NCBI GenBank assembly: GCA_035274425.1
Contig: DATEOC010000017.1
Span: 5,456 to 69,455 of the forward strand
Direction: 5' to 3'
Source of the DNA: Chloroflexia bacterium
GTDB taxonomy: Bacteria > Chloroflexota > Chloroflexia > QHBQ01 > JADMIH01
Length of the DNA stretch: 64,000 bases
Part shown: positions 8,045 through 31,770 of the stretch, piece after piece
Numbering within the stretch: position 1 is the first letter of the stretch
Layout of the letters: each line of letters starts with the position of its first letter
Notes under the pieces: generated by a model
What the model saw: the letters and a program-made list of their open reading frames with translations, nothing else
Database searches by the model: none
Told to the model about the DNA's origin: nothing
Made by a program: the position numbers and the translations under genes

Positions 8045-8200
8045 CCGACGGACGACGGACGACGGACGACGGACGAGGGTCTAAACGCAGAGACGCAAAG
8101 ACGCAGAGGACGCACAGAGATTATTAAGAATATGTATTAACCAATAATAATCTCTGTGTTACCTTTGTGCTCTCTGTGTCTCTGCGTGTAATCGGTCATC
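8045..8200. repeat. Intergenic heptamer tandem repeats (ACGACGG x4.5, then degenerate GACGCAG/AGACGCA units) followed by a long imperfect palindrome (~45-bp arms centred ~8150)
   Basis: Direct reading: ccgacggacgacggacgacggacgacggacga, then ...acgcagagacgcaaagacgcagaggacgcacagagattattaag / cttaataataatctctgtgttacctttgtgctctctgtgtctctgcgt. Confidence 0.8.
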
Positions 8201-8205
8201 TGTCG

Positions 8206-9468
8206 TCACCGATACGTTCTCCCTTTCCAGCGGACGCCTTTGCCTGAGAGGACGCGGTACATGGAGAAGAGGAGCATGGCGTTGCCTACAGCTACGCCGA
8301 GGGGATAGGTGAGGGCGTAACGAGGGGGCACCCCCATCTGGCGGCATACGGCCAGGCGAACGGCCAGCATGGGGAGCATCTGCATGGCCCCATGCGCTAA
8401 AATGGTCTCACGACTAGTTGATCGTTTTGCCAGCGAGATAGCGATTACGAGAGGTGGCGTGAGCGCGTACAGGCTGAGGGCTGCTATTACACCTAGCGCC
8501 CTGAGCGTGTTGTGCCCGCTGGCCCAGAAGAGGGTCTTGGCATAGCCGTTCCACATATCCCGCAAAGATGAGTAGACGCGGGCGCTGGCAAGGTTGCGGC
8601 CATATTCGAGCCGGACATTATAGCCTCTCTCCTTCAGAGCCTGGGCGAGCGCGCGGTCCTCGGCTACGTCGCCTCTCACCTCCTCGCTGGCACCTAATGC
8701 GCCGAAGAGTTGCCGCCTGACCAACATACATTGCCCGTTCGCGGCAGCGCCTTTGCGCCCACGCTCATTCACCTGGTCCATCGTGCCCACCAGCAGCGTG
8801 TAAAGCTCCCCGACCTGGGGCACCAATACGCGCTCCCAGAAGGACTCCATCTGGACATTGATCACAAGGCTGAGGAGGTCGGCACTAGTGCATAACGTGC
8901 CATGCACTACGGAAGGAAGCATCAAGGGCGAGTGTCGCGTGTCGGCATCCACGAAGAGGAGCCAGTCTACTTCGTCGGGAGTTGCGAGATAACCGGCGTA
9001 CATCGCATTGGCCTTCCCAGTCCAGCCGTTTGGGAGCGGTGGCGCTGCTATGACGCTCAACTCATGGCGCTGGGAATCCATCTCGCTTGCTATCTTCTTA
9101 GTCGCATCTGTAGATGCGTCGTCAACCAGAAGGACGCCCCATCTGCCGCGCGGGTAATGCTGGGCGAGTAGGGAAGATAGCAGGGGAGCGACATTATCCT
9201 CTTCATTTCTTGCGGGGGCGATGATCTGCACGAAAGGTGCGTCTTTGCCTTCCGGCCATTCATACTGCGTAAGGTTGCGGTTCCTGCGCCGGTTCATTGC
9301 GAGACCGGTAGCGACCGCGATTGTTATAATGTTGGTGATGATAGTCCTCAGCCAATTGAAATCGACCCGTGCAAGTTTCATACGAGCAGTGTAATGGCGC
9401 ATCACATCATGCGCAAGGAGACCGATGCCTCCAATTGACAAAGCCGAGCGCCGCGAGATCAAGCGCAA
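8206..9468 (-). CDS. Membrane glycosyltransferase, GT2 family
   Basis: GT2 signature LLVDDASTDAT and a DxD-type motif (FVDADT). Hydrophobic N- and C-terminal segments. Confidence 0.7.
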   Translation of the reverse strand: MRLISRRSALSIGGIGLLAHDVMRHYTARMKLARVDFNWLRTIITNIITIAVATGLAMNRRRNRNLTQYEWPEGKDAPFVQIIAPARNEEDNVAPLLSSLLAQHYPRGRWGVLLVDDASTDATKKIASEMDSQRHELSVIAAPPLPNGWTGKANAMYAGYLATPDEVDWLLFVDADTRHSPLMLPSVVHGTLCTSADLLSLVINVQMESFWERVLVPQVGELYTLLVGTMDQVNERGRKGAAANGQCMLVRRQLFGALGASEEVRGDVAEDRALAQALKERGYNVRLEYGRNLASARVYSSLRDMWNGYAKTLFWASGHNTLRALGVIAALSLYALTPPLVIAISLAKRSTSRETILAHGAMQMLPMLAVRLAVCRQMGVPPRYALTYPLGVAVGNAMLLFSMYRVLSGKGVRWKGRTYR

Positions 9469-9604
9469 AAAGCTACGTGACGCTAAATTCCAGAATGTCC
9501 GCTATCGCACCCTGCGGGCTGGAGAGTCTCTGGTCGCCTTCGAGACGGAGCGCAAGACTACCATAGAGGGCAAGCCCATTAAACCTCGCAAGCGTCGTAA
9601 GTAG
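9425..9604 (+). CDS. Small (59 aa) Lys/Arg-rich hypothetical protein, absent from the ORF track because it is <60 aa
   Basis: My own translation: MPPIDKAERREIKRKKLRDAKFQNVRYRTLRAGESLVAFETERKTTIEGKPIKPRKRRK*. It is highly basic and overlaps the 5' end of the antisense GT2 gene by ~44 nt. Confidence 0.25.
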   Translation: MPPIDKAERREIKRKKLRDAKFQNVRYRTLRAGESLVAFETERKTTIEGKPIKPRKRRK

Positions 9605-9680
9605 AGTGCAATAGACATAGTTACCCATTGCATTAACCGAACATCTGTGCTATAGTTTTATCATCTGAGACTTCTTAGAA

Positions 9681-10493
9681 ATGGGGTACACTATGAGCAG
9701 CGCAGATGATTTTTCGGCAGATCAGGAGCTGGTCCCACAGGATGGGGCAACGCTTGCGCTCCAGGGCGAGAAGCAGCGTCTCTTTGTGCAGACGCTCGAT
9801 GAGGCACAGGTCGATTTCCTTTTGCAGCGCACTCCCAGGCAAGAGATAAAGATGCGCCAGGGGCGGGGCGGTTTGCAGTTTGCCTACGTCGAGCACGGCT
9901 ATGTAACCGAGCGCCTCAACATGGTCTTCGGCTTCAACTGGGACTTCGAAATTATTGACAAGCAAATCCTGGAAGACGAAGTTATAGTCGAAGCTAAGTT
10001 GACGGTGCGCACGCCGAAGGGGCAGACTATCGTCAAGACCCAGTTCGGGGGAGCGGATATCAAGCGCCACGCCTCCGGCCCCAAAATGGGTCGCCCCCTT
10101 TCGATAGCGGACGACTACAAGGCGGCGGGTAGCGACGCCTTGAAGAAGTGCGCCTCGCTCCTGGGCATCGGTCTGGACCTTTACGGGCGTGACCGCATAG
10201 ATGAGGACTCTCCCAAGCCCGCCGAACAACCCACTCCTGTACACGTTCCTGAACCACTCAAGCGTGATGCCGCCAATATTACGCCTCTCAACGCGCCCGC
10301 AGCCGGGTCGAGCACCTCTTCTCAGATACAGGAGATAGGCAGGCTGGCGCGACAGTGCGGCATGCCCATTTCCGAGCTATGCGCAACCCTCGGTGTATCC
10401 GACCTCTCCGAGCTTACCGAGGCGCGCTCAGAGAGGGTAATCAAGCGGCTTCGCCAGCGCGCTTCCGAAGCATCCTCTGGGCGAGCGGGGTAG
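9681..10493 (+). CDS. Rad52/Rad22-family single-strand annealing protein homolog (orphan recombinase)
   Basis: The segment GRGGLQFAYVEHGYVTERLNMVFGFNWDFEIID matches the conserved Rad52/22 core (..y..g..V...LN..FGFNGWS.ei..). The acidic, low-complexity C-terminal tail is typical of SSAPs. Confidence 0.55.
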   Translation: MGYTMSSADDFSADQELVPQDGATLALQGEKQRLFVQTLDEAQVDFLLQRTPRQEIKMRQGRGGLQFAYVEHGYVTERLNMVFGFNWDFEIIDKQILEDEVIVEAKLTVRTPKGQTIVKTQFGGADIKRHASGPKMGRPLSIADDYKAAGSDALKKCASLLGIGLDLYGRDRIDEDSPKPAEQPTPVHVPEPLKRDAANITPLNAPAAGSSTSSQIQEIGRLARQCGMPISELCATLGVSDLSELTEARSERVIKRLRQRASEASSGRAG

Positions 10494-10508
10494 AGGGGCG
10501 CTTCGCTT

Positions 10509-10799
10509 GACGACGGACGACGGACGACGGACGATAGATGATGGGTTGGAAAATAGTCAATTCCGGTGTAGAAATGTACTCTCAGAACCTAACCTGACAT
10601 AGAGATTCGTTAACATGTCAGGTTAGGTTTGGGCCACCTGATCGCCATCCAGTAAGCCTATTGCCGCTTAGAAGCAAAAAAGCGTACCGCTCATCTTAAG
10701 AAGGTCTATGTACGCTTCGCTTTTGGAGCGCTTGGTAATCACCCTCTATCGTCTATCATCTATCATTTATCGTCCGTCGTCCGTCGTCCGTCGTCCGTC
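10509..10799. repeat. MITE-like intergenic structure: GACGACG/GATAGAT heptamer array (10509-10544) and its reverse complement (10746-10799) flanking a perfect 15-bp stem hairpin (aacctaacctgacat...atgtcaggttaggtt, ~10596-10640)
   Basis: Direct reading: gacgacggacgacggacgacggacgatagatgat vs ...atcatctatcatttatcgtccgtcgtccgtcgtccgtcgtccgtc. Confidence 0.75.
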
Positions 10800-10982
10800 A
10801 GTAGGGATTGACACTGCCATCCAAATACAGTATCATAGCGTGTGCGTGCTTATCTAGCGTGCCGTGCTATTGTCTCTGGGCGCACCAGGGCAAACGGCGT
10901 CGGGGTAAACCCGAACCAACCTGCCAACATGCCATCCTTCGAGCCAGAGGTGGCTCGTCCTGGGCGAAGAAAGGGGTTTTGA

Positions 10983-13517
10983 ATGCCGCGACGTCACATG
11001 CTCAAGCCGAACTTACAGACAGTTCTTTTGGGGATCACGCTATTGCTGGTCTCAGGTAGTCTTGCGTCTCTACAGACCGCACAGGCCGGTCCTAATAATG
11101 CGCTTCCTCCCGCGGCCTTCAGCCCTAATGGCCTGGTCATAAACGAGATATATGATAGCACTACGGGCACCAACGAGTACTTCGAGCTTTTCAACAACAG
11201 CTCGGTTGCTATCGACCTCTCTACTTATCGTATTTATAACCGCGACGACTCCATACCGTTGTCAAATCTTGCCAATCCCACAATCACCGCCGGGCAGTAT
11301 CGCGCAATAGGCTCCGCACAGCTTGGTGACTGGTTCACCGGCTCGACGGGTCTGGACCGCAATGGAGACTTCCTGGGGCTGGTAAACACCAATCCAACCG
11401 ATACCATCATAGATGTAGTCAACTTCGGCAGCTCTCCCAATCCCAACTGGCCCAATTATGAGCGGTTCCAGGACCACTTTTTTACTTCCAACATACCTCA
11501 GCTTCCGCCCTTTGACGGCACACGCGCACTCCAACGATGGCCTGACGGTCAGGACAGTGATCAGGGGAGCGATTTCGATTCCATACCTAGTTCGCCAAGT
11601 TCAGCCTCGTGCGGTGACCCATATGAGGACGATAACGCACCAACGTCGACTACAACGCATCCAATCGGAACCACCAGGTTGCACCGCTTGTGTCCCGCAG
11701 GTGATCAGGACTGGATCCCCCTCCAGCTGAACAGTTCCAGCACCTATACCCTGCGCGCTACTGCCCAGGGGTCGACCGTCGATACTGTGATGAGGCTGTA
11801 TGAGTCCACTAATCTTATTGTAGAGGATAACAACCCTAACACGCGCGACAGTGTAATCAACTTCAGGCCAACGACCAGCGGCCTCTTCCGTGTTCAGATA
11901 ACGGACGCGAACGGCCAGGGTGGATCGGGACCAAACTTCCTCTACAATTTCCGAGCCGATTCTACTCTGGTCCCTACGTCTACACCCACGGTATTCGCCA
12001 GCGCGACTGCTGTCACGGTCACACCTACGCCCATTCCGTGTGCGGACGCTTACGAGCCTGATGACAGCCGCGACAATCCCAGGGACATCGCGCTCTTCGC
12101 CCCTCAGCGCCATTCACTCTGCCCGGCAGGTGATCAGGACTGGGTGCAATTCCAGGCAGGTGGTGATAAGGTCTATTCACTCTTTACCTCCGCCCTGACC
12201 GGGCCTGTGGATACGGTCATTACTCTGTATGACTCGGGAGGCCGGTTCCTCGCTGAAAACGACGATGCTCAGCCCGGACAGGGTCTCGCATCTCGTCTAG
12301 ATTACACATTCTATGGTAGCGGCAACGCTCTCTATTTTCTACGCGTGCGGGAAAGGACCGGCAGCGGCGGCGTTGGCTATGAATACACTCTCAACTTCCA
12401 GTCGCAGGGTGGCCTCCCACCGACCTCTACCACAACCCCTACACCCACTTTCAACCCCAATAGCCCCACGCCGACATCAGGGCCGTGCGGTGACTCTTAT
12501 GAGACCGATGGCCTGCCATCCGAGGCGAAAGATATACTTATCGGCACCACACAGCGCCATAGCATCTGCCCGGCGTCTGACGCCGACTGGGTGAAGTTCT
12601 ATGCGCGCTCCGGTAAGGTGTATACCATTCGCACCGCCAACCTGGGACCGGGCCTCGATACCTATATGTACCTCTTCGACACCAATGGCACCACCGTACT
12701 CGCCCAGAACGACGATGGAGGTGACGGGATCGCATCGCGCCTGGACTTCTACCCGCTACGTGACGACTTCTATTACGTACAGGTGAAGAACGCAGGCGAT
12801 ATAGGCGGCTCGCTGCAAACTTACGACCTGGTACTGGCAGTAGCGCCTGGTGTTCCGCAGCCGCCTGGCACGGCCACCGCAGGACCTCCGCCTCCATCTG
12901 GTAACACGCCAACCACGGTGGTGCAACCGACCCGCCCGCCTGCACCTTCGCCCACAGCCGGGAGCATACCGCCGACGCCACCTGCACAGCAGACGGTAGC
13001 CGTGCCTCCGCAGCCCGTTTCCACTTCCCAGCCGGGTGGTGGAGGGTTACCGCCGCCCCAGCCAACAGGGCAGCTCCCGCCTGCGCCGACGCTACCTGTT
13101 CCGTCTGAGCCGGAGTCGACGATGATTCCCAACATACCTCGCACGGGCCACCCGGCCGAGGTACCTGCTAAGCCTATAATTGTTCTGCCTGAGAAACCTG
13201 CCCTTCCGGGGAGCAGCGTCGATTACCTGCCCGTATCGTTCAGGCTCTTTTATGATCGCAATCACAATAACCTGTTCAATGCAGGGGAGGGCATCAGGGG
13301 TGTAAGTGTCTACTTCATGCAGGGGAAGGGTAACAGCACTGCGATGGGGAGCCTGACCACCTCTCACGAGGGATTTGGCGTCTCCCGACTGCTCAAGGAT
13401 AATTACAGAGTTGTCATCCCCTACTTTGGATTGGATATGCCGCTCAAGGACTTCCCTGGGCGCGATATGCACAGTATATGGCTGCCATCCTTGACCTTAC
13501 CGGACCGCGTGCCCTAA
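10983..13517 (+). CDS. Secreted protein with N-terminal signal peptide, one lamin-tail domain, three pre-peptidase C-terminal (PPC) domains, and a long Pro-rich region
   Basis: The signal peptide MLKPNLQTVLLGITLLLVSGSLASLQTAQA suggests an alternative start at 10998. LTD signature: LVINEIYDSTTGTNEYFELFNNSSVAIDLSTYRIY. Three repeats each contain C.D.YE.D......I.....H..CPAGDQDW..F.......Y.......DTV..LY.S.......NDD......S.L, matching the PPC (PF04151) pattern. A Pro/Thr-rich tract follows at nt ~12840-13200. Confidence 0.65.
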   Translation: MPRRHMLKPNLQTVLLGITLLLVSGSLASLQTAQAGPNNALPPAAFSPNGLVINEIYDSTTGTNEYFELFNNSSVAIDLSTYRIYNRDDSIPLSNLANPTITAGQYRAIGSAQLGDWFTGSTGLDRNGDFLGLVNTNPTDTIIDVVNFGSSPNPNWPNYERFQDHFFTSNIPQLPPFDGTRALQRWPDGQDSDQGSDFDSIPSSPSSASCGDPYEDDNAPTSTTTHPIGTTRLHRLCPAGDQDWIPLQLNSSSTYTLRATAQGSTVDTVMRLYESTNLIVEDNNPNTRDSVINFRPTTSGLFRVQITDANGQGGSGPNFLYNFRADSTLVPTSTPTVFASATAVTVTPTPIPCADAYEPDDSRDNPRDIALFAPQRHSLCPAGDQDWVQFQAGGDKVYSLFTSALTGPVDTVITLYDSGGRFLAENDDAQPGQGLASRLDYTFYGSGNALYFLRVRERTGSGGVGYEYTLNFQSQGGLPPTSTTTPTPTFNPNSPTPTSGPCGDSYETDGLPSEAKDILIGTTQRHSICPASDADWVKFYARSGKVYTIRTANLGPGLDTYMYLFDTNGTTVLAQNDDGGDGIASRLDFYPLRDDFYYVQVKNAGDIGGSLQTYDLVLAVAPGVPQPPGTATAGPPPPSGNTPTTVVQPTRPPAPSPTAGSIPPTPPAQQTVAVPPQPVSTSQPGGGGLPPPQPTGQLPPAPTLPVPSEPESTMIPNIPRTGHPAEVPAKPIIVLPEKPALPGSSVDYLPVSFRLFYDRNHNNLFNAGEGIRGVSVYFMQGKGNSTAMGSLTTSHEGFGVSRLLKDNYRVVIPYFGLDMPLKDFPGRDMHSIWLPSLTLPDRVP

Positions 13518-13602
13518 GATAGAGGAGTGGGCGGTCTAGCGGGACCGCCCAACCGCCGGACAGGGGCGCAAAGCCTGATTCACATAGCTGAGGCAAGACC
13601 GA

Positions 13603-14619: not shown

Positions 14620-14668
14620 CGCAATCTGGGATTTTTACTCTCAGAGTTCGGATATAGCCGCCAATCCT

Positions 14669-15451
14669 GTGCCAGAAGCTTCCGGCCCGCGCCTCTCACC
14701 CGGAGAGGCGGTCATGTTTTTGGGCGACCAAACCTCCCCTGATGATCCCGGATTCGTTCGCGTCATCTCCGATGTGCTGAGTCGCTTTCACCCACAGTTG
14801 CGACTAAACCTTATCAGCGCGGGCGCGCCTGGGCAGACTGCCGGGGGGTTGAAGTCCCGCACTTTGCTGGACCTGCTCTCCTCGTCGCGCCCTGATTGGC
14901 TGGTCATCAACCTGGCGCTGGCTGACGCGACCCGCGAGCCTCCCCTGGTGGGTTTGCTCCACCAGTACAGGGCGCGCATGGCTACGCTGGAGAGTGACTT
15001 CGATGAGACCCTGGGGCCGTTACACAGGATAGGCGAAGACGCCTTCGGTACTCGCGCAGACAGTGGCAAGCTGCCGGAGATTGAGTGGCATCGCTTGCCC
15101 GTATTTCGATCCGCCCTGGGAGAGGCCATTGGGGAGCTTAGAAGCGCCGGTGTGCGGTCTGTTTTGATGACACCTGTGGCGGTAAGCCACGACCTGAACC
15201 ACCCGCTCAATCTTGCGCTACGCGCTTACAGCCGCGCAATACGTGAGGTTGCCGGTGTTGAGGCTGCGCCCCTGGTCGACGTGGACCGTGCCTTCCGTGC
15301 CGTGCTGGAGCGCGCCACCAACTATAAGCAGAAGGTGTCACTTGCGGACGAATCAGGAGTGGCAAACCCACAAGGAGTTGCGCTCATCGCCCGCACCTTC
15401 CTAAATGCCTTTGGCCTCTTGCCTCAGCCAGGCTTCAGGCCGCTACGCTAA
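14669..15451 (+). CDS. Putative SGNH/GDSL-family hydrolase
   Basis: A GDS-like block VMFLGDQTS lies near the N-terminus, with a DxxH-like SHDLNHP near the C-terminus. Weak, motif-level evidence only. Confidence 0.4.
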   Translation: MPEASGPRLSPGEAVMFLGDQTSPDDPGFVRVISDVLSRFHPQLRLNLISAGAPGQTAGGLKSRTLLDLLSSSRPDWLVINLALADATREPPLVGLLHQYRARMATLESDFDETLGPLHRIGEDAFGTRADSGKLPEIEWHRLPVFRSALGEAIGELRSAGVRSVLMTPVAVSHDLNHPLNLALRAYSRAIREVAGVEAAPLVDVDRAFRAVLERATNYKQKVSLADESGVANPQGVALIARTFLNAFGLLPQPGFRPLR

Positions 15452-15476: not shown

Positions 15477-15530
15477 ATTCTTCATACATGAAAATGTGCG
15501 CCGCGGCGCACATTTTCATGTATGAAGAAT
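15477..15530. terminator. Perfect 54-bp palindrome (27-bp arms, no loop) between convergent genes; candidate bidirectional intrinsic terminator
   Basis: Direct reading: attcttcatacatgaaaatgtgcgccgc|ggcgcacattttcatgtatgaagaat. It is flanked by T-rich sequence on both sides, between the stop codons of 14669..15451 (+) and 15556..17916 (-). Confidence 0.6.
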
Positions 15531-15555: not shown

Positions 15556-17916
15556 TCACGTCCTGAAGAAGATGATGTAGATCAGGAAGGCTATCACCAT
15601 GAGGGTGATGACCCCGAACCAGGGGAAGGTCACAGGTCCGGTGGTGCCCAGTCCTTTGCCGAGCAGGTGGGGGATGTCGGCGACGACGGTGTTGGGGCGG
15701 AAGAGGAGCCTCGCTTTCAATCTAAAGGCACTCTGATTGTGAAGGAGGTACTCCCACGGTTTGGCGGGTATAACTTCGGGGAGTATGACCGTGATTGTAT
15801 CGTCAGGGTGTTGCTGGTCCAGCGCATCTATGTATGCCAGTAGAGGGCCTATCAGGGAGCGATATGGAGACTCGATTATCACGAGCTGGATATCTGTATC
15901 AGGGAGCCGCTCACGCCATTGCCTGTTGAATTCCTCCGCTTCTTCAGACTCTTCCCCTTCGACGATGTGTACTGCTGTGACGTTGGAAGAGAGTGACCGA
16001 GCGTAAGAGAGTGCCCGTAACGCCACCGAGTTTAGACCCGCCACAGGCACGATGAAAGTATGCTTGAACGTTTCTACCATGCCAGTGTCGGCCGCTGCCA
16101 TCTCGCGTTTGACCCGTTCGTAGTGACGGTTCACCGCGAGGAAGATTGCCATCATAATCGGAATCAGAATGATTACCAGCCAGGTACCCTCATCGAGCTT
16201 GGTCAACGTCGCTACCAGGAAGACCATCAGAGTCACGAGCGCGCCGACCCCGTTTAGTACGAGGCCCCCTCTCCAACCTTGTGGCCGCTTGCGCCACCAT
16301 CGCGCTACCATTCCCGCCTGCGAGAAGGTGAATGCTCCCATGACGCCGATAGCGTACAGTGGGATGAGCGCCGACGTATCGCCATTGTAGACCACGACCA
16401 GCACGCATGCCAGCACGGCCAACGTTACGATACCCCACGAGAAAGCCAGTTTGTCGCCCCGGAAGGCATACTGGTGTGGCATGAAGCGGTCGCGCGCAAG
16501 AAAATAGCCAAGCCTCGGGAAGTCGGAGAAGGCTGTGTTTGCTGCCAGCACGAGGATGAGCGCTGTCACTATCTGGATGAAGAACCAGAGGGGATGGGCT
16601 CCAAATACGCTGGGCAAGATGTTTCGGGCGATCTGCGAAACTACAGTCTCCTGCTCGCTGGGGTGCACGCCCAGGGACGTAGCCAGATAGGTGATGCCGC
16701 CAAACATGGCGATAGAAATAACACCCATCCAAAGGAGCGTCTTACGCGCATTGTCGGCCTCAGGCGGCTTGAATGCAGGCACACCATCCGCTATTGCCTC
16801 AACACCGGTGAGGGCCGCTGAGCCTTGTGTGAACGCCCTGAGCAAGACAAGTATCAGCGCCAGGCCCACAGGCTCCACACCTGGTGGCACAATCTCGCCT
16901 GGCGCGCCTACGAACCTGGCCGGCAGGTCCGGCTCAGTTAATAGTCTGAAGATACCCAAGAATATCATGCCCAGAATTCCCAGGATGAAGAGGTAGGTAG
17001 GGACGGCGAAGATGTTGCCCGCTTCGCGCAGACCCCTGAGATTGGCTATCGTTATGAAGACGATTAGTCCTATGGCGATCTCGACCCGACGGTCCTGCAA
17101 CGCTGGGAAGATCGAGTACAGCGCCGCTACCCCAGCCGCTACGCTCACAGCAACCGTGAGGATGTAACCTATCAATATGGAGGATGCGGCGGCCAGTCCG
17201 GGGAGCGTGCCCAGGTTGTCCTTGGCGACTATGTAGGTGCCGCCACCTCGTGGATACGCTGCTATCGTCTGGCGGTATGATGTTACCACTATCGCCATGA
17301 GGACGATTACCGCCAATGCAATGGGCATCCCCGTCCAGAGAGCTACACCGCCGAGCACCAGGACGTGCAATATTTCCTCTGTGGCGTAAGCCACGGACGA
17401 GAGGGCGTCGGAAGAGAGCACTGCGAGCGCCTTGACGTTGGTGAGGCGTTCGTGCATCGATTGCTCTGTGCTGAGGGGCTTGCCGATGAGCACTCGCTTG
17501 ATGTTGCCGAAGAGGCGGCCCCAGGGAGTGCGAGGTACTTCCGCTTCCAGTGAGGCCGACAGCACGTTTCGCCCCATGCGCTTGAATGGCCCTGATCTGC
17601 GGCTGTAGCGGATGAAGGTGTCTCCAGGGTGGCTGCCCTTGTGCACCTCTTCACTTCGGAGGTCCGATTTGACTTTGTGGTCTTCCGAACGCGGTGCCTT
17701 GGCTGCGGCGGGAGGTGTGCTCTCTGGTTGGGCAGCAGGAGCAGGTGTCGCGTTCTGCCCCATGACGCGTACCTGCCTGGGTGAGCGCTCTGTATCGCCC
17801 GGACGCGCGTCAGTGGGGGCAGCAGGGGGTTGGCCGTCTAGTGGGCGCGCGCTATCGGCGTTCACCGGGGAGTTTTGAGCTTCCGAGGGGCTTGAAGCCT
17901 CTTGTGGTTTATCCAT
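15556..17916 (-). CDS. APC-superfamily permease with a disordered N-terminus and a C-terminal cytoplasmic domain
   Basis: KRVLIGKPLSTEQSMHERLTNVKALAVLSSDALSSVAYATEEIL is the conserved N-terminal block of this APC subfamily. About 12 TM helices follow, then a ~200-aa soluble C-terminal domain. Start set at MDKPQE (17916) because the longer ORF (to 18018) overlaps the upstream proline dehydrogenase gene. Confidence 0.65.
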   Translation of the reverse strand: MDKPQEASSPSEAQNSPVNADSARPLDGQPPAAPTDARPGDTERSPRQVRVMGQNATPAPAAQPESTPPAAAKAPRSEDHKVKSDLRSEEVHKGSHPGDTFIRYSRRSGPFKRMGRNVLSASLEAEVPRTPWGRLFGNIKRVLIGKPLSTEQSMHERLTNVKALAVLSSDALSSVAYATEEILHVLVLGGVALWTGMPIALAVIVLMAIVVTSYRQTIAAYPRGGGTYIVAKDNLGTLPGLAAASSILIGYILTVAVSVAAGVAALYSIFPALQDRRVEIAIGLIVFITIANLRGLREAGNIFAVPTYLFILGILGMIFLGIFRLLTEPDLPARFVGAPGEIVPPGVEPVGLALILVLLRAFTQGSAALTGVEAIADGVPAFKPPEADNARKTLLWMGVISIAMFGGITYLATSLGVHPSEQETVVSQIARNILPSVFGAHPLWFFIQIVTALILVLAANTAFSDFPRLGYFLARDRFMPHQYAFRGDKLAFSWGIVTLAVLACVLVVVYNGDTSALIPLYAIGVMGAFTFSQAGMVARWWRKRPQGWRGGLVLNGVGALVTLMVFLVATLTKLDEGTWLVIILIPIMMAIFLAVNRHYERVKREMAAADTGMVETFKHTFIVPVAGLNSVALRALSYARSLSSNVTAVHIVEGEESEEAEEFNRQWRERLPDTDIQLVIIESPYRSLIGPLLAYIDALDQQHPDDTITVILPEVIPAKPWEYLLHNQSAFRLKARLLFRPNTVVADIPHLLGKGLGTTGPVTFPWFGVITLMVIAFLIYIIFFRT

Positions 17917-17936
17917 ACTGGACTTGCCTTGACCCC

Positions 17937-18854
17937 CTAGCCCTTGAAGAGATTGCTGACTACAAAGACCACATTCGCCGGGCGCTCCGCCAGCCTTCGC
18001 ATGAAGTACGGGTACCATTCATGGCCGTAAGGCACATACACTCGCATATTGTAGCCCTGACTCGCCAGCTCGATTTGCTCTTTGCGGCGCACGCCATATA
18101 GCATCTGGAACTCGAACCTGGCTCGCTCTATGCCGCGCTTTTCGGCAAACCGCTTCGTATATTCGATCAGGCGACTGTCGTGTGTGGCGATGCCCGGGTA
18201 ATTGCCCTCAGTGAGGAGCAGCTTTGTCAGCTTCGCATAGTTGGCGTCCACGTCCGCCTTCTTGGGGAAGGCTACCGACTCCGGCTCGTTGTACGCACCC
18301 TTGCACAAGCGCACCCTCGCGCCGAGTGAGTTCATCTCCTTGACATCGTTCACGGTGCGATAGAGATATGCTTGAAGAACGACACCTACATTTCTATAGC
18401 CCGATTCGTGCCACAGTTTTCGGAAGATGCCCAGCGTGCGGTCCGTATAGGCTGAGCTTTCCATATCGATGCGAACGAAGTTGTTCAAATCGCGGGCGCG
18501 CTCGCAAATCCGCGCCACGTTCTGGAAGCAAAGCTCTTCATCAATGTCGAGGCCCATCTGCGTCAGCTTGAGCGATACGTTGGAATTTATACGACTGGAA
18601 ACTATGCGCTTCAACACCTCTATATACGAATCGGCAGCGGCCCTCGCTTCAGCTTCGGTATTGATGTTCTCTCCCAGGTGGTCGAAGGTAGCGGTGATAC
18701 CCTTCTGATTAAGGGCTGCTATGGCTTCGACAGCCTGGTCGAGGGTCTCCCCCGCGACGAAGCGCAGGGCGAATTTGCGCGCCGCGCCGTTGTGGAGCGC
18801 GATGTTCTGAAGCTCCCGGCTGTTCGACATACTGAGGAATGCTTGTCTGAGCAC
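17937..18854 (-). CDS. Proline dehydrogenase (monofunctional PRODH family)
   Basis: 305 aa. The N-terminal LRFVAGETLDQAVEAIAALNQKGITATFDHLGENI is typical of bacterial proline dehydrogenase family proteins, and size and TIM-barrel pattern are consistent. Confidence 0.7.
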   Translation of the reverse strand: MLRQAFLSMSNSRELQNIALHNGAARKFALRFVAGETLDQAVEAIAALNQKGITATFDHLGENINTEAEARAAADSYIEVLKRIVSSRINSNVSLKLTQMGLDIDEELCFQNVARICERARDLNNFVRIDMESSAYTDRTLGIFRKLWHESGYRNVGVVLQAYLYRTVNDVKEMNSLGARVRLCKGAYNEPESVAFPKKADVDANYAKLTKLLLTEGNYPGIATHDSRLIEYTKRFAEKRGIERARFEFQMLYGVRRKEQIELASQGYNMRVYVPYGHEWYPYFMRRLAERPANVVFVVSNLFKG

Positions 18855-19824: not shown

Positions 19825-21540
<1,716 letters not shown>

Positions 21541-21559: not shown

Positions 21560-21648
21560 CCCTGTCATTCTGAGCGAAGCGAAGAATCTAAAGCTGCCTC
21601 CACACGTCCAAGCTCGGAGATTCCTCACTCCGTTCGGAATGACAGGGA
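21560..21648. repeat. Copy 1 of a repeated extragenic palindromic element (core CCTGTCATTCTGAGCGAAGCGAAGAATCTAAAG) in the folD-fhs intergenic spacer
   Basis: Left arm cctgtcattctgagcgaagcgaagaatctaaag; right arm ctcactccgttcggaatgacaggg (imperfect reverse complement). The same element recurs at 26996-27112. Confidence 0.7.
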
Positions 21649-26931: not shown

Positions 26932-26995
26932 CGCCTTAGAACCTGTGTACCAACGGCATGCCGAGACTTACGAGCTTGAATGACGAAGCACTCCT

Positions 26996-27112
26996 CGGCC
27001 TGTCATTCTGAGCGAAGCGAAGAATCTAAAGATGATGGGATCAAGAGAGCTTCGGGTAAACATCACAGGTGGGTTAGATTTTTAGATTCTTCACTTCGTT
27101 CAGAATGACACA
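26996..27112. repeat. Copy 2 of the CCTGTCATTCTGAGCGAAGCGAAGAATCTAAAG palindromic element (31-bp arms, ~45-nt loop) between convergent hemW and maf
   Basis: cctgtcattctgagcgaagcgaagaatctaaa ... tttagattcttcacttcgttcagaatgacac. Confidence 0.75.
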
Positions 27113-27262
27113 CTATCTTGGTCTTCTTACTCGAACTTGCAAGATGCACCACTCAGAACGACAGGGTATCGAGTATGCTTTTTGGATACCCCCTCAGAAT
27201 GAAATAGAGCGGGGTCGAGTGCTAAAACAGCCTTTAGCGCGGCAAATATCTCTGAGTGGGCA

Positions 27263-27958
27263 TTAGAGATATTGGTGCATACAGAAATTGCAGTAGCCGC
27301 CCTCGGGTCGGGGAAGGACATCCACCTGAAAGGCGGTGAGCGCGGTTTGTACAGCGCACAACGGTAGGCCGATCACAGTGGTAACGCACCCCTCGACGTG
27401 CTCGATTAGCCTCCCACCCAGCCCCTGAAGTGCGTAAGCGCCAGCCTTATCGCTATGCTCCCCAGTAGCTACATATCCCTCAAGCTCTTTGGCACCGAAC
27501 TGGCGCATAATTACTCTGGTCAGAACGGCCTGCGAGTGAAGAGTTCGTGGGGTAGTGCCTTCAGCGCGTACCAGCACGAATCCGGTAGCCACATAATGTG
27601 CCTGACCTCGGAGTAATGTCAGCATACGCAAAGCGTCGGTGGTGTCCACGGGCTTGCCCAGCAGCTCCCCAGGCGCGATAACCACCGTATCCGCAGCGAG
27701 CACAATCGCGTCTGCCGACTGCTCAAGGGAAAGGGTAGAGAGGGCATCAACAGCCTTGCGCCAGGCCCACAGGCGAGGGTCAGATGTATGGGGCACGCTG
27801 AAGGGGGCGGGCAAAGCGAGTGGCTCTAGTTCCCATTCAGGGTACGTCTCTGATCCCACTTCCTCTACTGTGCTTACTACGGTCGAAAATGAGGGAACGA
27901 GCCGCCGTATAAGCTCCTGTCGCCTGGGAGATGCGGAAGCGAGAATTACCTGGGGCAT
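27263..27958 (-). CDS. maf: Maf-like nucleoside triphosphate pyrophosphatase (septum formation protein Maf)
   Basis: VILASASPRRQELI N-terminal Maf signature. Start set at MPQVILAS. The longer ORF (to 28003) would translate a GAAGTCC heptamer array into KPKSEVRSPKSE and overlap the ruvA stop. Confidence 0.75.
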   Translation of the reverse strand: MPQVILASASPRRQELIRRLVPSFSTVVSTVEEVGSETYPEWELEPLALPAPFSVPHTSDPRLWAWRKAVDALSTLSLEQSADAIVLAADTVVIAPGELLGKPVDTTDALRMLTLLRGQAHYVATGFVLVRAEGTTPRTLHSQAVLTRVIMRQFGAKELEGYVATGEHSDKAGAYALQGLGGRLIEHVEGCVTTVIGLPLCAVQTALTAFQVDVLPRPEGGYCNFCMHQYL

Positions 27959-27992
27959 TTCGGACTTTGGACTTCGGACTTCGGACTTCGGT

Positions 27993-28571
27993 TTATCGCC
28001 CAAGCCGCTTGAGGGCGAACATTATCATCTCCTCTGTGCCCATTTCGCTATCTTTGGGGAGGGCTGAGAGGGCGGCCTGAATCTCGGCGGGATTGTAGCC
28101 CAGGCTGCTGAGGGCCTCTACTACTTCGCCCGTGGCGACGGTGGCGGGGGTAGCCCCTGCAAGCGCGTTCGCGTCAATCTTCCCTTTCAGCTCCAGGACG
28201 AGGCGAGCCGCCGACTTGCGTCCGATGCCCGGTATGCGGGTAAGGAGCTCTATGTTGCCCGACGCGATAGCCCCTTCGAGGGCGTCAACAGGCATAGTGC
28301 CCATGATAGCGAGCGCGGCTTTGGGTCCAATGCCTGACACCCCCAGGAGCGTCTCGAATAGCCTGATTTGCCTCTCTTCAGGAGCGCCGTAGAGGGCTAG
28401 CTGGTCTTCGCGCACGTAGAGGTAGGTGTGCAGGCGCGCCGTGTCACCGATCTTGCCTATGCCCCCAACCAGGGAGCCTGGCATCGCTACACGGTAGAAG
28501 ACTCCTCCAACGTTGAGCACGGCATAATCGGGGCCGAGCGCGCTGATCTTCCCTTCCAGTCCGGCAATCAT
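27993..28571 (-). CDS. ruvA: Holliday junction DNA helicase subunit RuvA
   Basis: MIAGLEGKISALGPDYAVLNVGGVFYRV OB-fold N-terminus. Internal HhH motifs (LLGVSGIGPKAALAIL, LTRIPGIGRKSAARL). 192 aa. Confidence 0.9.
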   Translation of the reverse strand: MIAGLEGKISALGPDYAVLNVGGVFYRVAMPGSLVGGIGKIGDTARLHTYLYVREDQLALYGAPEERQIRLFETLLGVSGIGPKAALAIMGTMPVDALEGAIASGNIELLTRIPGIGRKSAARLVLELKGKIDANALAGATPATVATGEVVEALSSLGYNPAEIQAALSALPKDSEMGTEEMIMFALKRLGR

Positions 28572-28573
28572 CG

Positions 28574-30946
28574 TTAGCGCGTCCCCGTTCTGAATTGCGG
28601 CGTGGTCTCTTCACTTTTGGAAGTTCGTGTAGATGCTGCCCTGCCTCTAGCTGGACTTCCTTTGGCTGTGCTCACTTTTTCGGGCGCGTTGCCCAACTCA
28701 GAATTGCTGCCATTCCCGGCAGACGGGTTCGCGATGCGCGGGAAGTAGCCTGCGCCCCGCAACTCCTTTAGCAGACGTTGGGCAGGACTTTCGCGTCCGG
28801 ACTCCGAAGCGGGTGGCAGGGCGGCAATCGCGATGGTAGGGGTGAGGCGGCGCGTAATGTAGCGCTTGGTCTTGCGCGACGCCATCAATTCATCCAGCAC
28901 GGTGGGGTCCGCGACCTCAACGATTGTAACCTCTACGATGTCGAGGCGCTTTATCAGGCGCTCCCAGTCAGCAATTGAATGGGCGACGTTCTGAGGGAGG
29001 GCCTTGCCGGTGTTGGCCTCCAGAAAGCCCTTTATTTCCTCCCCCGTAAGCCCCGACTCGACGGCTCGTACCACGCTCTCCTTGTTGATGGTATAGACGC
29101 TAACGCGGTCATGGCGCACCAGGTCGGACATGCGGAGGAGGTTCCACACCACCGCGCTCTCCGGGTGTAGCACCAGCACCTCGAAGTTAGGCTGTACCAT
29201 CAGGCCCATGCTATTTTGGATTTTGGATTTTGGATTTTGGATTTGGGGTGTAGCTTGGGCGGCCTCTTCTCCCTTTTGGCTGCTGCCTTCAGCCTTGTGG
29301 CCGTTGGCTGGGGCGAATAAGGCCTGGCCCTCCGGGGTGACGCGGAAGGAGATGAAGCGCCTCTGCTTGTCACGCCCGATCTCTACAGCACCCAGCCAGT
29401 TGAGCATCGTCCTCAGCATATCGGCGATAATGCGGCCCTCTATCTCGAACCAATGGCTCCTGAAGCCCTGCAAGGCGCGCAAGCCAAATCTCTTCACCAG
29501 CTCGTCCTGGCTCCATATCAAGAAGGGGTCTATCAGTTGAATGCGCCTTAAAAAACCGTCCAGGTTGATCCACTCGCCTGCGGTGAGGCCGAGGAGGTGC
29601 TTCGCGAGGCGCTTGCGCGCGCCTGTGAGGTCGCTATTCCACCAATAGATAGTGCCGTACGTGGCCGGCTCGGCCCACTTGCGGTCCTCCTGCCAGAGGC
29701 CATACAGGCGGCGGCGTTGCGCCTCGAAGGAGAGCTTCGACCACTCTTCCGCCTTGGGGGCGAGAGCGAGCGTCACCTGCTCGCCCTGTTGCTCGACAAG
29801 CAACCCCAGGGAGCGGGCCAGATGGACTACCATATCTATATATTCGCTCTCGCTCTTGATGTCAGCAGGGTGGAGGAAGGCGTCGTTTATTCGCTTCGCG
29901 ACGCGCTTCGTAATTCGGGAGTCCTGGAGGGTCAATTGAAGCTCGCCTTGCAGGCCCGTCGCCAGGAGGGTCAGCATGTCCCAGGGCATCTCATAGGGGA
30001 GGCGGCTTTCGATAGTGTGCGGCGCGGGCGCGACGAGCTTAGGCTGCATGATAGGGGCGGTCTCGTTACCGCCTGAGGAGCGATTCAGCAAGTCCTGGGG
30101 CACGAAGAGGAAGCGCTTTTCTCCGACCAATACATCCCACACGAGCGCCCTTTGCACCAGGGGCGCTACGGCTGCGCGCATCTCACGGTCGTCCCAGTGG
30201 AAGTGGCGGCGCGCCTCGGCAGCCCTGACCGCTCCACCCCCTTTCTCTACGTGTTCGAGCAGCTTCTGGGAGCTTAGCGAGAGGGTAGAGATGAGTAGCT
30301 GGCGACCCTGCCCGGCGGCAAGGAACTCGCTCATGACCCCGATCAATTCTGATTTGTAATAGCGAGTAGTTTCGGGCAGTTTCCATGTGGCGGCGATGCG
30401 CTGTATCTCTTCCTGGTCGAGGCCCTCAAGGAGGGCGGCGAACGGCTCATCGAAGGGCGGGGGGCGCTTGCTCTCATCGATAATGTCCCGGAGGATCTTT
30501 GCCTCTTCCGCCGCGATAGAGACCACGCGGCGCTTGACCGCCTCAGCCTGGTTCTTGGGCGCCCAGGCGTAGAGATTATCGCCGGAGGAGACGACGCGCG
30601 TCCCGCGCACCATCACCTCGTCAACGTCTACCAGGCCGAGGCGTCTCGTCCAATCGAGGATGGGGGTGACCTCTTCTTCGGGGCGGGCGAATTGCGCGGG
30701 TAGGTCGTCCACGAGCGCCAGCATGTTGCGCTGGTTGAGGAGCCAACCGAGGAAAGCGCGTGCGTCAGGCTCCAGGTTCTCCCAGATGTTGCGCGTCGCG
30801 GACCGCTCCACCATCGTATGGTAGACCGCTATCGCCAGGTCGTTATGCGTGGGGTTCTGGTCGCGGTTGATAGTGCCCCATGCGTTGGCAATTACCTTTA
30901 ATTCTTCAAAGGGCCGGCTCATCAGCCGCCCAAGAAGGTTCTTCAA
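28574..30946 (-). CDS. Large hypothetical protein (790 aa), co-oriented and translationally coupled with ruvA-maf; carries an in-frame GGATTTT heptamer array
   Basis: Long intact ORF with coding-like composition and no motif I can recognise. nt 29215-29246 (ttttggattttggattttggatttgggg) translates in frame as PQIQNPKSKIQNS. Confidence 0.5.
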   Translation of the reverse strand: MKNLLGRLMSRPFEELKVIANAWGTINRDQNPTHNDLAIAVYHTMVERSATRNIWENLEPDARAFLGWLLNQRNMLALVDDLPAQFARPEEEVTPILDWTRRLGLVDVDEVMVRGTRVVSSGDNLYAWAPKNQAEAVKRRVVSIAAEEAKILRDIIDESKRPPPFDEPFAALLEGLDQEEIQRIAATWKLPETTRYYKSELIGVMSEFLAAGQGRQLLISTLSLSSQKLLEHVEKGGGAVRAAEARRHFHWDDREMRAAVAPLVQRALVWDVLVGEKRFLFVPQDLLNRSSGGNETAPIMQPKLVAPAPHTIESRLPYEMPWDMLTLLATGLQGELQLTLQDSRITKRVAKRINDAFLHPADIKSESEYIDMVVHLARSLGLLVEQQGEQVTLALAPKAEEWSKLSFEAQRRRLYGLWQEDRKWAEPATYGTIYWWNSDLTGARKRLAKHLLGLTAGEWINLDGFLRRIQLIDPFLIWSQDELVKRFGLRALQGFRSHWFEIEGRIIADMLRTMLNWLGAVEIGRDKQRRFISFRVTPEGQALFAPANGHKAEGSSQKGEEAAQATPQIQNPKSKIQNSMGLMVQPNFEVLVLHPESAVVWNLLRMSDLVRHDRVSVYTINKESVVRAVESGLTGEEIKGFLEANTGKALPQNVAHSIADWERLIKRLDIVEVTIVEVADPTVLDELMASRKTKRYITRRLTPTIAIAALPPASESGRESPAQRLLKELRGAGYFPRIANPSAGNGSNSELGNAPEKVSTAKGSPARGRAASTRTSKSEETTPQFRTGTR
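29215..29246. repeat. GGATTTT heptamer tandem array inside the 790-aa CDS (in frame)
   Basis: Direct reading. The same heptamer family occurs in NRPS module 1 (51725-51802). Confidence 0.85.
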
Positions 30947-31019
30947 ATTGCAGCCTCCGACAAAACGGGATTCGCGGACATTACCTTAGACTATAACTAA
31001 AGAGGTGCCTGGTGTCAAA

Positions 31020-31770
31020 TGCTGTTGGGGACGACGGAGGACGGACGATAGACTGATTAAACGCCAAGACGCCAAGATGACGAAGGACGCCAAGATTATT
31101 TATGGGTATTCACCGCAGAGACGCAGAGGTCTTATGGGGAGTGGTCTTGGTGGTGTTGGTGGGTGCGGGGGTAAGGGCATGGCGACGCCATGCCCCTACG
31201 GGCGCGTTGGGTTGTTGGGTTGGGTGCCCCTGTGCCGCAACTGGTTCCTGGTGATTTATCTCGGTGCCTGGGGTGCCTCTAAATACACCACCAGGGGTGA
31301 GCTTTGGGCATGGCGCTCCTACCAGGTGAGGATTGACCTGCGCTGTGCCGTTGTGTCGAATGTGGAGTAGCGAGTGGAGTGTGGAGCGTGAAACGTGAAA
31401 CGTGAAACGTGAGTGTAGATGTACTCGGTACTCGATATTCTGGGCTGAGACCTCCTTTTCGGGGGTGACGAGGGAGAGTGTAACTCCCTTGATGATAGGG
31501 ACACCAGCGGGACCCTTTGGGTTGGACCTCGACTGCGGACGGCGAGGTCGGAAATGCATCTCTATTAACTTAATCCCCTTTCGGGGGTAAAATGGGACAG
31601 CTTTTTGGGCCAATTTCCCAAATTGGTCCGAAATTGGTGGTTTTGAGGGCGTTTGGGAGGGCGATAGACGATAGACGATAGACGATAGACGACAGACGAC
31701 AGACGACAGACGACGAAGGACGAAGGACGAATTGGTCATCAGCTACTCGCTACTCGCTACTCGCTACTCA
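31020..31770. repeat. ~900-bp non-coding region densely packed with heptamer/octamer tandem repeats (GACGGAC, ACGCCAAG, GTGAAAC x3, TACTCGG, GATAGAC x4, GACAGAC x3, GACGAAG x2, TACTCGC x4) and G-rich tracts
   Basis: Direct reading, e.g. 31391-31411 cgtgaaacgtgaaacgtgaaacg and 31665-31770 gatagacgatagacgatagacgatagacgacagacgacagacgacagacgacgaaggacgaaggacga...ctactcgctactcgctactcgctactc. ORFs called across it (31005..31370+, 31110..31739-) are repeat-encoded and judged spurious. Confidence 0.8.

Follow-up and report, generated by a model that had tools for sequence, protein, structure and literature searches.

What the short tandem arrays of 7-nt units scattered through a 64,000-nt stretch of DNA from an uncultured soil Chloroflexia bacterium are, and how they came to lie both between genes and inside them, is the question raised by positions 5,456 to 69,455 of contig DATEOC010000017.1 (assembly GCA_035274425.1), here called the window. 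With moderate confidence, the arrays are read as heptanucleotide microsatellites that resemble the short tandemly repeated repetitive (STRR) sequences of cyanobacteria. They would belong to a family of dispersed repeats, mosaic in build, prone to hairpins and native to this Chloroflexia lineage, in which they form the arms and loops. A first-pass annotation, made from the sequence alone, had proposed a non-cyanobacterial host, and the closest genomes bear this out. In GTDB, sampled at one genome per species, the nearest RuvA loci belong to uncultured Chloroflexia metagenome-assembled genomes (MAGs), one at 96% identity (L003) and six at 64–70% (L004–L009), and the Rad52-like protein of the window is deposited as "MAG TPA Chloroflexia bacterium". 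L153–L156 denote further relatives and L033–L152 metagenome contigs. The GC content of the window is 0.45–0.63 per 2-kb step and 0.53–0.63 outside 40–46 kb, with about 57% for the host, and the surface proteins with SLH and LTD domains named by the annotation were confirmed, together with PLD and PPC domains.

Arrays were called in the window by TRF plus an exact-repeat scan, which place period-7 arrays within 1–3 nt of all coordinates given in the first-pass annotation: 8046–8076, 10509–10534, 10745–10799, 27959–27991, 29213–29244, 31029–31048, 31387–31412, 31662–31731 and 31742–31776. In addition, TRF reports imperfect octamer arrays (ACGCAGAG, ACGCCAAG) at 8085–8118 and 31061–31095. The annotation had made the comparison with other periods its own check, and within the window the outcome is clear. 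With a threshold of 2.5 copies, 18 exact arrays have period 7, where 30 dinucleotide-preserving shuffles of the window lead one to expect 0.00, while the other periods stay at background (0–1 each for periods 5, 6, 8 and 9–12, and fewer than expected for period 4). At three or more copies, period 7 retains 11 arrays and all other periods from 4 to 15 have none, so that the excess is specific to period 7. The window holds about 11 array loci, and 13 of its 24 exact arrays with two or more copies fall in the roughly 12% of the sequence that is non-coding. A wider census of 233 kb, on which the genome-wide claim of the annotation was examined and which is composed of about 74 kb of the genome to which the window belongs and about 160 kb of relatives, contains 44 exact arrays built from 21 canonical units; they have 2.4–5.6 copies and measure about 17–39 nt, and none is longer.

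An assembly or binning artefact is hardly credible as the source of this pattern. It would be suggested by the contigs L001 and L002, two independent short-read contigs that stop within heptamer arrays (at window positions 31756 and 29237, respectively), and these ends hint at multi-copy repeats or at copy-number heterogeneity in the sampled population. Nevertheless, the arrays of the window are 100% identical in a MEGAHIT contig (L001, L157) and a Logan contig (L002), the protein set of the window has also been deposited as an NCBI MAG with the same sequence, and the reading frame is intact across all five inserts in the genes for nonribosomal peptide synthetases (NRPSs) described below. Related arrays also occur in other samples, including contigs of 641 kb and 346 kb (L003 and L156), and the local assembly problem that had been entertained at first can be set aside.

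The units themselves recur from place to place. After merging same-unit arrays less than 1.5 kb apart, 40 arrays of the census remain, among which 31 pairs share a unit. When units were drawn at random 2000 times according to the heptamer composition of the window, the mean was 0.87 pairs and the highest count 6; some of the observed pairs are orthologues or NRPS paralogues, and many are neither. The unit ACGACGG is found at 8046, at 10509/10770 and at 31029, AAAATCC in the gene of a 790-aa protein and in NRPS module 1, AAGGACG at 31712 and in NRPS module 4, AAACGTG at 31387, within a dispersed 0.6-kb element, and directly 3′ of the RuvA stop codon in L006, and GAGTGCG in NRPS loops as well as in that element where it occurs in L156. 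This recurrence of a small set of units at unlinked sites is the STRR-like behaviour that had been suspected from the window.

Comparison with relatives shows how the arrays change. They are present in L003, L006, L007, L153 and L156, whereas about 66 kb of L004, L005, L008 and L009 contain none. L154 and L155, with 25 kb, have no exact array at the threshold either, although L154 has a small array hairpin; about 270 kb of more distant bacteria hold 3 arrays only. Two orthologous comparisons differ by one whole unit: (GAGTAGC) has 4 copies in the window and 5 in L003, a difference of exactly 7 nt, and (GTGAAAC) has 3.7 copies in the window and 4.6 in L153, between copies of the 0.6-kb element. 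In the spacer between RuvA and Maf, the window carries a single array on the minus strand, (GTCCGAA) ×4.7 at 27959–27991, which fills the space from the RuvA stop (gene 27993–28571) to the likely Maf ATG at 27959. The same spacer holds an inverted pair of AACGTGA in L006, CTTACTG in L007 and no array in five other relatives. In L003, a gene-sized insert of about 1.1 kb (10579–11694) lies between RuvA and Maf, where the window has only the 33-nt array. Similarly, the array by the promoter of the 790-aa gene is built of CGTCCAT in L003 and of CGTCCTT, CGTCTGT and CGTCTAT in the window, and the place orthologous to window 31662–31731 has (ATGGACG) ×3.7 in L003. There, three arrays abut on the plus strand of the window, (CGATAGA) ×4.4, (CGACAGA) ×4.0 and (CGAAGGA) ×2.9, whose units are 1–2 nt apart and form a graded series (GACGATA, GACGACA, GACGAAG).

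Period specificity, whole-unit steps and graded neighbouring units all point to strand slippage in 7-nt steps. One explanation is that of plain microsatellites, each born in place by replication slippage with a 7-nt bias and without movement between loci. The one-unit differences between orthologues, the grading of neighbours and the three lineages with different units in one spacer agree with it, as does the excess of heptanucleotide simple sequence repeats (SSRs) in many bacteria, which has been ascribed to slippage (PMC4692102, PMC4679880). Even so, this explanation is unlikely to suffice, as units are shared about 35 times more often than by chance, composite loci have non-repeat junctions in common, arrays flank a dispersed element, and the symmetry of inverted arms is left unexplained.

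The composite loci are best seen in the spacers. An array on the plus strand, (CGACGGA) ×4.4 at 8046–8076, starts 1 nt past the stop codon of an LTD/PLD/SLH gene (3104–8044) and is followed at 8080–8189 by an octamer module, consisting of TAAACGC, four copies of ACGCAGAG/ACGCAAAG, an AT-rich loop and inverted copies (CTCTGTGT...CTCTGCGT), which forms a long hairpin between convergent genes. A related composite on the plus strand begins at 31020–31058 with a GACGNNN-type array (GGACGAC GGAGGAC GGACGAT AGAC), 11 nt from the promoter of the 790-aa gene (11 of 12 matches, 31018–30990, minus strand), and continues at 31059–31108 with an octamer module (TAAACGCCAAG ACGCCAAG ATGACGAAG GACGCCAAG ATTATTTATGGGT) homologous to 8080–8130. 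The composites at 8036 and 31016 share the same order of parts: an ACGACGG-type array, GGACGA(TAGA/GGGT), TAAACGC, four ACGCMRAG octamers and ATTATT. L153 likewise has the octamer module, with the conserved tail (A/G)TT(A/T)TTTATGG(G/T)T, beside heptamer arrays, and L156 has it so placed twice more. Finally, an array of (GCTACTC) ×4 plus one variant unit (31742–31776, plus strand) lies upstream of a methyltransferase gene (31864–32646).

A nested order, A-B-loop-B′-A′, is frequent and is exemplified by the composite at 10509–10799. Its left arm (10509–10545, plus strand) is (GACGACG) ×3.7 followed by GATAGATGATGG and is 97% complementary over 34 nt to 10762–10795; a unique core of about 200 nt (10546–10744) holds the 15-bp perfect hairpin that had been noticed at the outset (10586–10600 / 10615–10629); and the right arm (10745–10799, plus strand) joins (TCTATCR) ×3.9 to (TCGTCCG) ×4.3 and stops 9 nt before a promoter with 11 of 12 matches, TTGACA-17-TATCAT, at 10808–10836. 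The corresponding spacer, from Rad52 to the promoter, measures about 25 nt in L155, contains 140 unrelated nt in L154, and is occupied by a composite of 291 nt in the window and of 820 nt in L153.

Folding against shuffles found strong hairpins at six loci: 8085–8189 (−34.3 kcal/mol, z = −6.9), 10509–10799 (z = −9.6), 51725–51801 (a perfect 32-bp stem, z = −11.2), 62076–62208 (z = −5.9), and 55013–55095 and 58557–58594 (z about −3). The same procedure gave no hairpin at 27959–27991, 29213–29244, 31015–31135 and 31655–31780. Thus, about half of the loci form strong hairpins, and the initial description of inverted arrays that fold into hairpins stands for "often" and fails for "always".

Such hairpins raise the possibility that the arrays are selected cis-regulatory or RNA elements, be it as stabilising or terminating structures, as sites of a heptamer-reading protein (Csp-type, as proposed for Beggiatoaceae) or as modulators of promoters (as suggested for Nostoc). 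Their position gives this idea some appeal, because arrays abut strong promoter-like sites and stop codons and the 8085–8189 hairpin separates convergent genes; furthermore, reporter assays in Nostoc point to an effect of heptamer repeats on promoter output (bioRxiv 10.1101/2022.06.06.494920). It is improbable, however, because neither the presence, nor the unit, nor the copy number of the arrays is conserved at orthologous sites, close relatives included, and because like arrays also occur within coding loops. The array hairpins lack T-tails, none was called as an intrinsic terminator, and terminator counts are at or under the shuffle level. As for RNA families, Rfam 15 at gathering score yields two tRNAs only in the whole window, and at permissive E-values the 8000–10990 region gives only sub-threshold miRNA-hairpin noise (at 8080–8192).

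A further indication that more than slippage is involved comes from the dispersed element. At 31058–31712, the window contains about 655 nt that L003 lacks, placed in the middle of a CGTCNNT array, and the empty site of L003 keeps the array without the element. Its conserved core (31109–31655) is non-coding and includes the palindrome GTAGGGGCATGGCG-AC-GCCATGCCCCTAC. By blastn, one further copy lies between Rad52 and an LTD/PPC promoter (L153 1318–2009, 79% over about 690 nt) and another between unrelated genes (L156 9845–10507, about 80% over 532 nt). A partial fourth copy is known only from HKP52882.1, a translated open reading frame (ORF) on a second contig of this MAG series, and a GAGTGCG array comes after it. 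A BLAST search of all collected loci found no copies beyond those in L153, L156 and the duplicate contig L001. All three full copies are bracketed by GACGNNN arrays in the same orientation; the L156 copy is flanked by a 14-nt direct repeat (GGATGATGGACGAT) equal to two units, and that of the window has TCTATCG on both sides.

Within the element, a hypervariable slot (31387–31434, plus strand) holds (GTGAAAC) ×3.7 and (GTACTCG) ×2 in the window, GTGAAAC ×4.6 and CTCACTA ×4.7 in L153 and GCGGAGT ×4.3 in L156, between flanks that are 90–95% conserved. A conserved ORF is excluded, since the copies differ by indels of 4, 13 and 18 nt, two ORFs inside the element have no Pfam match, and Rfam has no match in 30950–31870 at E-values up to 5. 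The core folds with a z of only about −2 on both strands, with no compensatory changes among the two or three copies, which does not demonstrate a structured RNA, and a comparison of the copies in the window, L153 and L156 found no terminal inverted repeats.

These observations bear on whether the composites are classical miniature inverted-repeat transposable elements (MITEs) or similar non-autonomous transposons, in which the inverted arrays would be terminal repeats for a transposase encoded elsewhere and the solitary arrays footprints or target duplications. The first-pass annotation had called 10509–10799 MITE-like, and its long complementary arms around a 200-nt core, its empty site in L155, the direct repeats beside the 0.6-kb element and the contigs that terminate within arrays could all be taken that way. 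This label is not upheld, and the explanation as a whole is decidedly unlikely. A BLAST search of about 0.9 Mb of related and metagenome DNA found no second copy of the 10546–10744 core, no direct repeat or target-site duplication flanks the composite at 10509 or 10799, and its arms are generic arrays that also occur alone. Moreover, arm sequences differ freely from locus to locus, many arrays are single and unpaired, the 0.6-kb element has no terminal inverted repeats, and its flanking repeats vary (7, 14 or more nt), unlike a target duplication of fixed length. There is no transposase in the window, where the sole recombinase is the integrase of a genomic island.

The copies inside genes, which had also been reported from the window, are real both in the adenylation (A) domains of the NRPSs and in the 790-aa protein. 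Beyond the range covered by the first-pass annotation, NRPS arrays occur in three genes at 51727–51800, 54996–55073, 58540–58571 and 62074–62208. All of them belong to in-frame inserts on the plus strand. The A domain 1 insert (51724–51804, 81 nt) consists of (GATTTTG) ×4.3, a 12-nt loop and (CAAAATC) ×4.6 and encodes SDFGFWILDFGVDPDNPKSKIQNPKSG. A domain 2 (54994–55137, 144 nt) has (GAGTGCG)n ... (GCAGAAG)n ... CCGCACTCCGC, and A domain 3 (58538–58642, 105 nt) has (GAATGCG/GAGTGCG)n, a short loop and CCGTACTCCGC. In A domain 4 (62073–62213, 141 nt), (GGAGTGC) ×4.7, (GACGAAG) ×3.9, (CAGAAGG) ×4.4 and (ACTCCAC) ×4.4 succeed one another, and the outer arrays pair together in the order A-B-C-A′. 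A fifth A domain, just past the window, has a like insert (L157 16100–16230). It had been suggested that coding arrays are biased toward multiples of 21 bp, but the four lengths leave 18, 18, 0 and 15 modulo 21, and only the multiple of 3 is kept.

The site of insertion is the same in all five A domains, namely the loop ahead of YRTGD, between RFVPNPF and GRLY(R/K)TGD. This stretch has 27, 48, 35 and 47 residues in modules 1–4 of the window and a comparable length in module 5; in an alignment with LgrA, a sequence of solved structure, a single LgrA residue is matched by an insertion of about 25 residues in A domain 1. Among the best 120 database homologues, both motifs could be placed in 60, and the loop has 5–8 residues in 47 of these and 15 in one, while ten apparent lengths of 93–94 are false matches of the upstream motif. 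Only two of the 60 carry long inserts (39 and 41 residues), from Nostoc and Dendronalium. The insert of Nostoc sp. ChiVER01 (L158 1313–1471) is a period-9 repeat, GGGAGCAGA, and not made of heptamers; the Dendronalium protein is P0139. It therefore seems that repeats can be inserted into the A-domain loop before YKTGD in more than one phylum. The outer hairpin stands alone in module 3, whereas modules 2, 4 and 5 have additional arrays at the hairpin apex, which suggests growth at the loop. A further array, (CGGACGA) ×3.1 at L157 18085–18106 (equivalent to about window position 67550), lies less than 70 nt from the end of the fifth NRPS gene, which encodes C-A-T-reductase; the ACGACGG unit is thus also found at the 3′ end of a gene.

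In the 790-aa protein (28574–30946), the array (CCAAAAT) ×4.6 (29213–29244, minus strand) is in frame and encodes QIQNPKSKIQNS, part of a variable linker before the Helicase_C_3 domain. The insert is absent in the six relatives L004–L009 and present at about equal length in L003, a sequence that cannot be used to judge the reading frame since its ORF is also broken upstream of the array, possibly by sequencing indels. Because a heptamer array is read in all three frames, only stop-free units can persist in genes, and all eight genic units are indeed stop-free in every frame; the intergenic units GATAGAC, GTGAAAC and GAGTAGC are not. Of the 11 genic exact arrays in the window, 9 fall in five permissive inserts.

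As 7 is not a multiple of 3, the loss or gain of one unit would shift the frame, and the coding arrays might be contingency loci that switch the NRPSs and the 790-aa protein off and on, as described for heptanucleotide phase-variable SSRs in the accounts of Haemophilus influenzae given in PMC2651432 and PMC8262952. Phase variation is very improbable here. The length of the coding array is kept between species, five modules are intact in three assemblies, and most arrays are intergenic. Furthermore, the arrays have only 3–5 copies, far fewer than the switches of which we are aware.

Slippage alone leaves the shared repertoire, the shared junctions and the array-bracketed element unexplained, and a second layer, the copying of modules between sites, has therefore been added to it. 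On the explanation favoured here, that of STRR-like microsatellites within a mosaic family of dispersed repeats, strand slippage would lengthen and shorten arrays where they lie, 7 nt at a time. The two arms of a hairpin would be kept alike by intramolecular template switching (quasipalindrome correction), which would also account for the symmetrical copy numbers and the one perfect stem; the symmetry of the arms, taken with established mutational mechanisms, suggests this step. Modules would spread between sites by way of the identity of arrays about 30 nt long, through recombination, the favoured guess, or through a recombinase, with the arrays acting as landing pads for each other and for the 0.6-kb element. 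Recombination through the arrays is, we think, the most likely route of copying, because it would leave a segment between direct arrays, as is seen. Selection would then purge harmful copies; the survivors would occupy spacers, between a stop codon and the −35 box that follows it, and arrays that are stop-free in three frames could also survive in surface loops and linkers of proteins.

Under this explanation, the arrays would be selfish or neutral DNA, and their restriction to spacers and permissive loops, together with the stop-free genic units, would be the signature of purifying selection. Among the side effects would be long hairpins in mRNA or DNA, altered surroundings of promoters, recombination hot spots and variable protein loops. 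The island at 33.5–44.6 kb (tRNA-Leu, integrase, Prim-Pol, methylase; lower GC) is free of heptamer arrays, which fits a process native to the host, in a region too small for a firm test.

Several points weigh against this account. A shared repertoire is not what slippage from random seeds would give, and the spread of modules had to be added with no recombinase or transposase identified. Simple slippage predicts no ceiling, and yet the copy number is narrow (2.4–5.6, and none above 6 in 233 kb). The length of the in-frame (CCAAAAT) array is kept between two species that differ in about 14% of their bases, so that slippage cannot be fast at this site. For recombination of the RecA type, a length of about 30 nt is close to the minimum. 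The inserts at one site in the A domains can be explained by module duplication without any targeting, although the unit of NRPS module 1 is completely different from those of the other modules. Template switching, as far as these loci go, is inferred from arm symmetry only, and the island is a weak argument, with about 11 kb, about 11 loci and a chance probability around 0.1.

In a bolder explanation, the arrays would be the portable recombination sites of a very small mobile-DNA system with a shared code of about 20 heptamers. Through them, loci would exchange non-coding cassettes, for which the 0.6-kb element, the octamer module and entire hairpins are candidates. The apices of hairpins, also those within the NRPS loops, would be where new arrays are seeded, and both the 7-nt register and the limit of about 4–5 copies would be imposed by a dedicated putative enzyme. 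The ACGCNNAG octamer hairpins, found on at least 120 metagenome contigs of 30–71% GC, would be a widespread cousin. This remains speculative, and we consider it unlikely.

The hairpins in question are recognised by the octamer pattern AAACGCMRAGACGCMRAGA in at least 120 JGI metagenome contigs with GC contents of 0.30–0.71. Their arms are 3–4 tandem ACGC[AC][AG]AG units, often opening with TTAAACGC (L033–L152), and 51 of the 120 matches listed have an inverted partner no more than 200 nt away. In 689 kb of these listed contigs, exact arrays number 36 for period 7, 50 for period 8, a count raised by the selection of contigs on the octamer pattern, and 5 for periods 9–12; the heptamer density of the window is about 5 times theirs. 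Thus, hairpins with arms of 3–4 tandem 7- or 8-mers are widespread in environmental bacteria. A literature search found the octamer array sequences in no paper. A proposed linkage of the octamer hairpins to GxxExxY (PD-(D/E)XK-like) genes, with which they would travel, was rejected, since such an ORF adjoins only 5 of the 120 matches listed, a real but minor association. In three of these five loci (L120, L126 and L137), the octamer array encodes the N-terminus of the ORF.

Other repeats and features of the window are of a different kind. Two large SLH/LTD surface-protein genes have in-frame tandem repeats with periods of 33–108 nt, multiples of 3, at 1320–2100 and 7051–7282; they are protein repeats of the ordinary sort and have no relation to the heptamers. 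Another dispersed repeat, CCTGTCATTCTGAGCGAAGCGAAGAATCTAAAG, likewise unrelated, occurs at 21561–21593 and 26999–27031 (100% identical, 5.4 kb apart), and its inverted partner at 27081–27110 creates a hairpin downstream of a HemN-like gene. A perfect 54-nt palindrome at 15477–15530, between the convergent genes 14669–15451 and 15556–18018, may be a bidirectional terminator. The region 32766–44600 looks like an element integrated at tRNA-Leu: it comprises tRNA-Gly and tRNA-Leu, an HTH+HNH ORF (32796–33353) whose start overlaps tRNA-Gly, a tyrosine integrase (33547–34689), a 937-aa Prim-Pol protein and a DNA methylase, with a GC content of 0.45–0.53.

With these arrays, Chloroflexia joins the cyanobacteria, Xanthomonas, Burkholderia and Beggiatoaceae among lineages with heptanucleotide repeats. 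The particulars worth recording are the mosaic composites, the inserts in five of five A domains and the 0.6-kb element. One spacer with three units in three lineages, sites that are filled in one genome and empty in another, and a hypervariable slot between conserved flanks constitute clean comparative material, which can be used to test how heptamer repeats arise, a question dating from 1990. In practical terms, the arrays break short-read assemblies, the perfect 32-bp hairpin and the low-complexity loops of 27–48 residues in A domains are relevant to gene calling, NRPS domain boundaries and engineering, and "hypothetical proteins" translated from repeats call for caution in interpretation.

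How, then, do these repeats compare with known systems? The REP/BIME elements of enterobacteria and the BOX elements of pneumococci are modular intergenic elements made of short motifs in variable number and orientation; they form hairpins, lie between stop codons and promoters and are insertion sites for other elements. The composites of the window are similarly modular, hairpin-forming and placed from stop to promoter. REP sequences differ in being imperfect palindromes of 20–40 nt moved by RAYT transposases, whereas the modules here are themselves microsatellites and no RAYT-like gene was seen in the window. The small dispersed repeats (SDRs) of Nostocaceae, which Elhai and colleagues reportedly described in 2008 (Genome Res 18:1484, cited in PMC5861425), are said to be very small, mobile-looking elements for which the enzyme is not known, nested in other repeats that include tandem heptamers; reportedly, they are unique sequences of 21–27 nt and, unlike the arrays of the window, not tandem.

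Closer parallels exist among heptamer arrays proper, and the novelty outside the cyanobacteria that had been claimed does not hold. An excess of heptanucleotide SSRs is known in Burkholderia, Xanthomonas, Actinobacteria, Beggiatoaceae and Bacteroidetes, with inverted pairs and copies in ORFs too (PMC4692102, PMC4679880). The GGGAATC repeats of Xanthomonas and the GGGGA(T/C)T repeats of Nostoc PCC 7120 also form intergenic arrays, some of them inverted pairs that give stem-loops, and vary in length and sequence at one spacer between close relatives (PMC4692102). They consist, however, of one G-rich, quadruplex-forming unit per genome, whereas more than 20 unit types occur here, none of them prone to form quadruplexes. 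A regulatory side effect of heptamer repeats has been proposed from reporter assays in Nostoc (bioRxiv 10.1101/2022.06.06.494920). The TAACTGA repeats of marine Beggiatoaceae, also present in some Cyanobacteria and Bacteroidetes, resemble the arrays described here in having 2–6 copies, in being intergenic, often by start codons and occasionally in ORFs, in being mixed with other heptamer arrays, in breaking contigs and in their patchy phylogeny (PMC4679880). Arrays of 2–6 copies, mixed units, ORF copies and broken contigs are on record for Beggiatoaceae, Microcystis and Bacteroidetes (PMC4679880). The difference is that TAACTGA is a single dominant unit in nearly always direct arrays, for which a translational role was proposed from the position upstream of start codons (PMC4679880).

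Two classes remain, and they come closest. The units of STRR1–3 are CCCCAGT, TTGGTCA and CAACAGT, and by hand comparison none of the 21 canonical units found here matches them. Since the host and all unit sequences differ, the arrays are not members of the named STRR family, which was reported from heterocystous cyanobacteria by Mazel et al. in 1990 for Calothrix PCC 7601 (as cited in PMC4692102). Besides having a Chloroflexia host with about 57% GC, they reach at most 5.6 copies, against a 26-unit array illustrated for Nostoc (PMC4692102), and lie mostly in nested hairpin composites with the octamer module. What they share with STRRs is the 7-nt unit, the dispersed, mainly intergenic head-to-tail arrays, the few recurring units and the lack of a known mechanism or function.

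The second class is that of long SSRs with units of 5–11 nt (LSSR5-11), chiefly heptanucleotides, which are over-represented in many prokaryotes and for which slippage was proposed (Mrazek, Guo and Shah 2007, as reported in PMC4692102 and PMC4679880). Neither of these two papers, in the text consulted, names Chloroflexi for heptanucleotide SSRs, and a full-text literature search for Chloroflexi together with heptanucleotide tandem repeats found none. The arrays resemble this class in the period-7 excess with other periods normal, the large genomes of free-living hosts, the non-coding bias and the proposal of slippage; they exceed the expectation from composition, and their length changes by whole units in two orthologous comparisons. 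The shared repertoire and junctions go beyond what slippage gives. In behaviour, then, the heptamer arrays of this Chloroflexia lineage match the STRRs and the wider class of heptanucleotide long SSRs.

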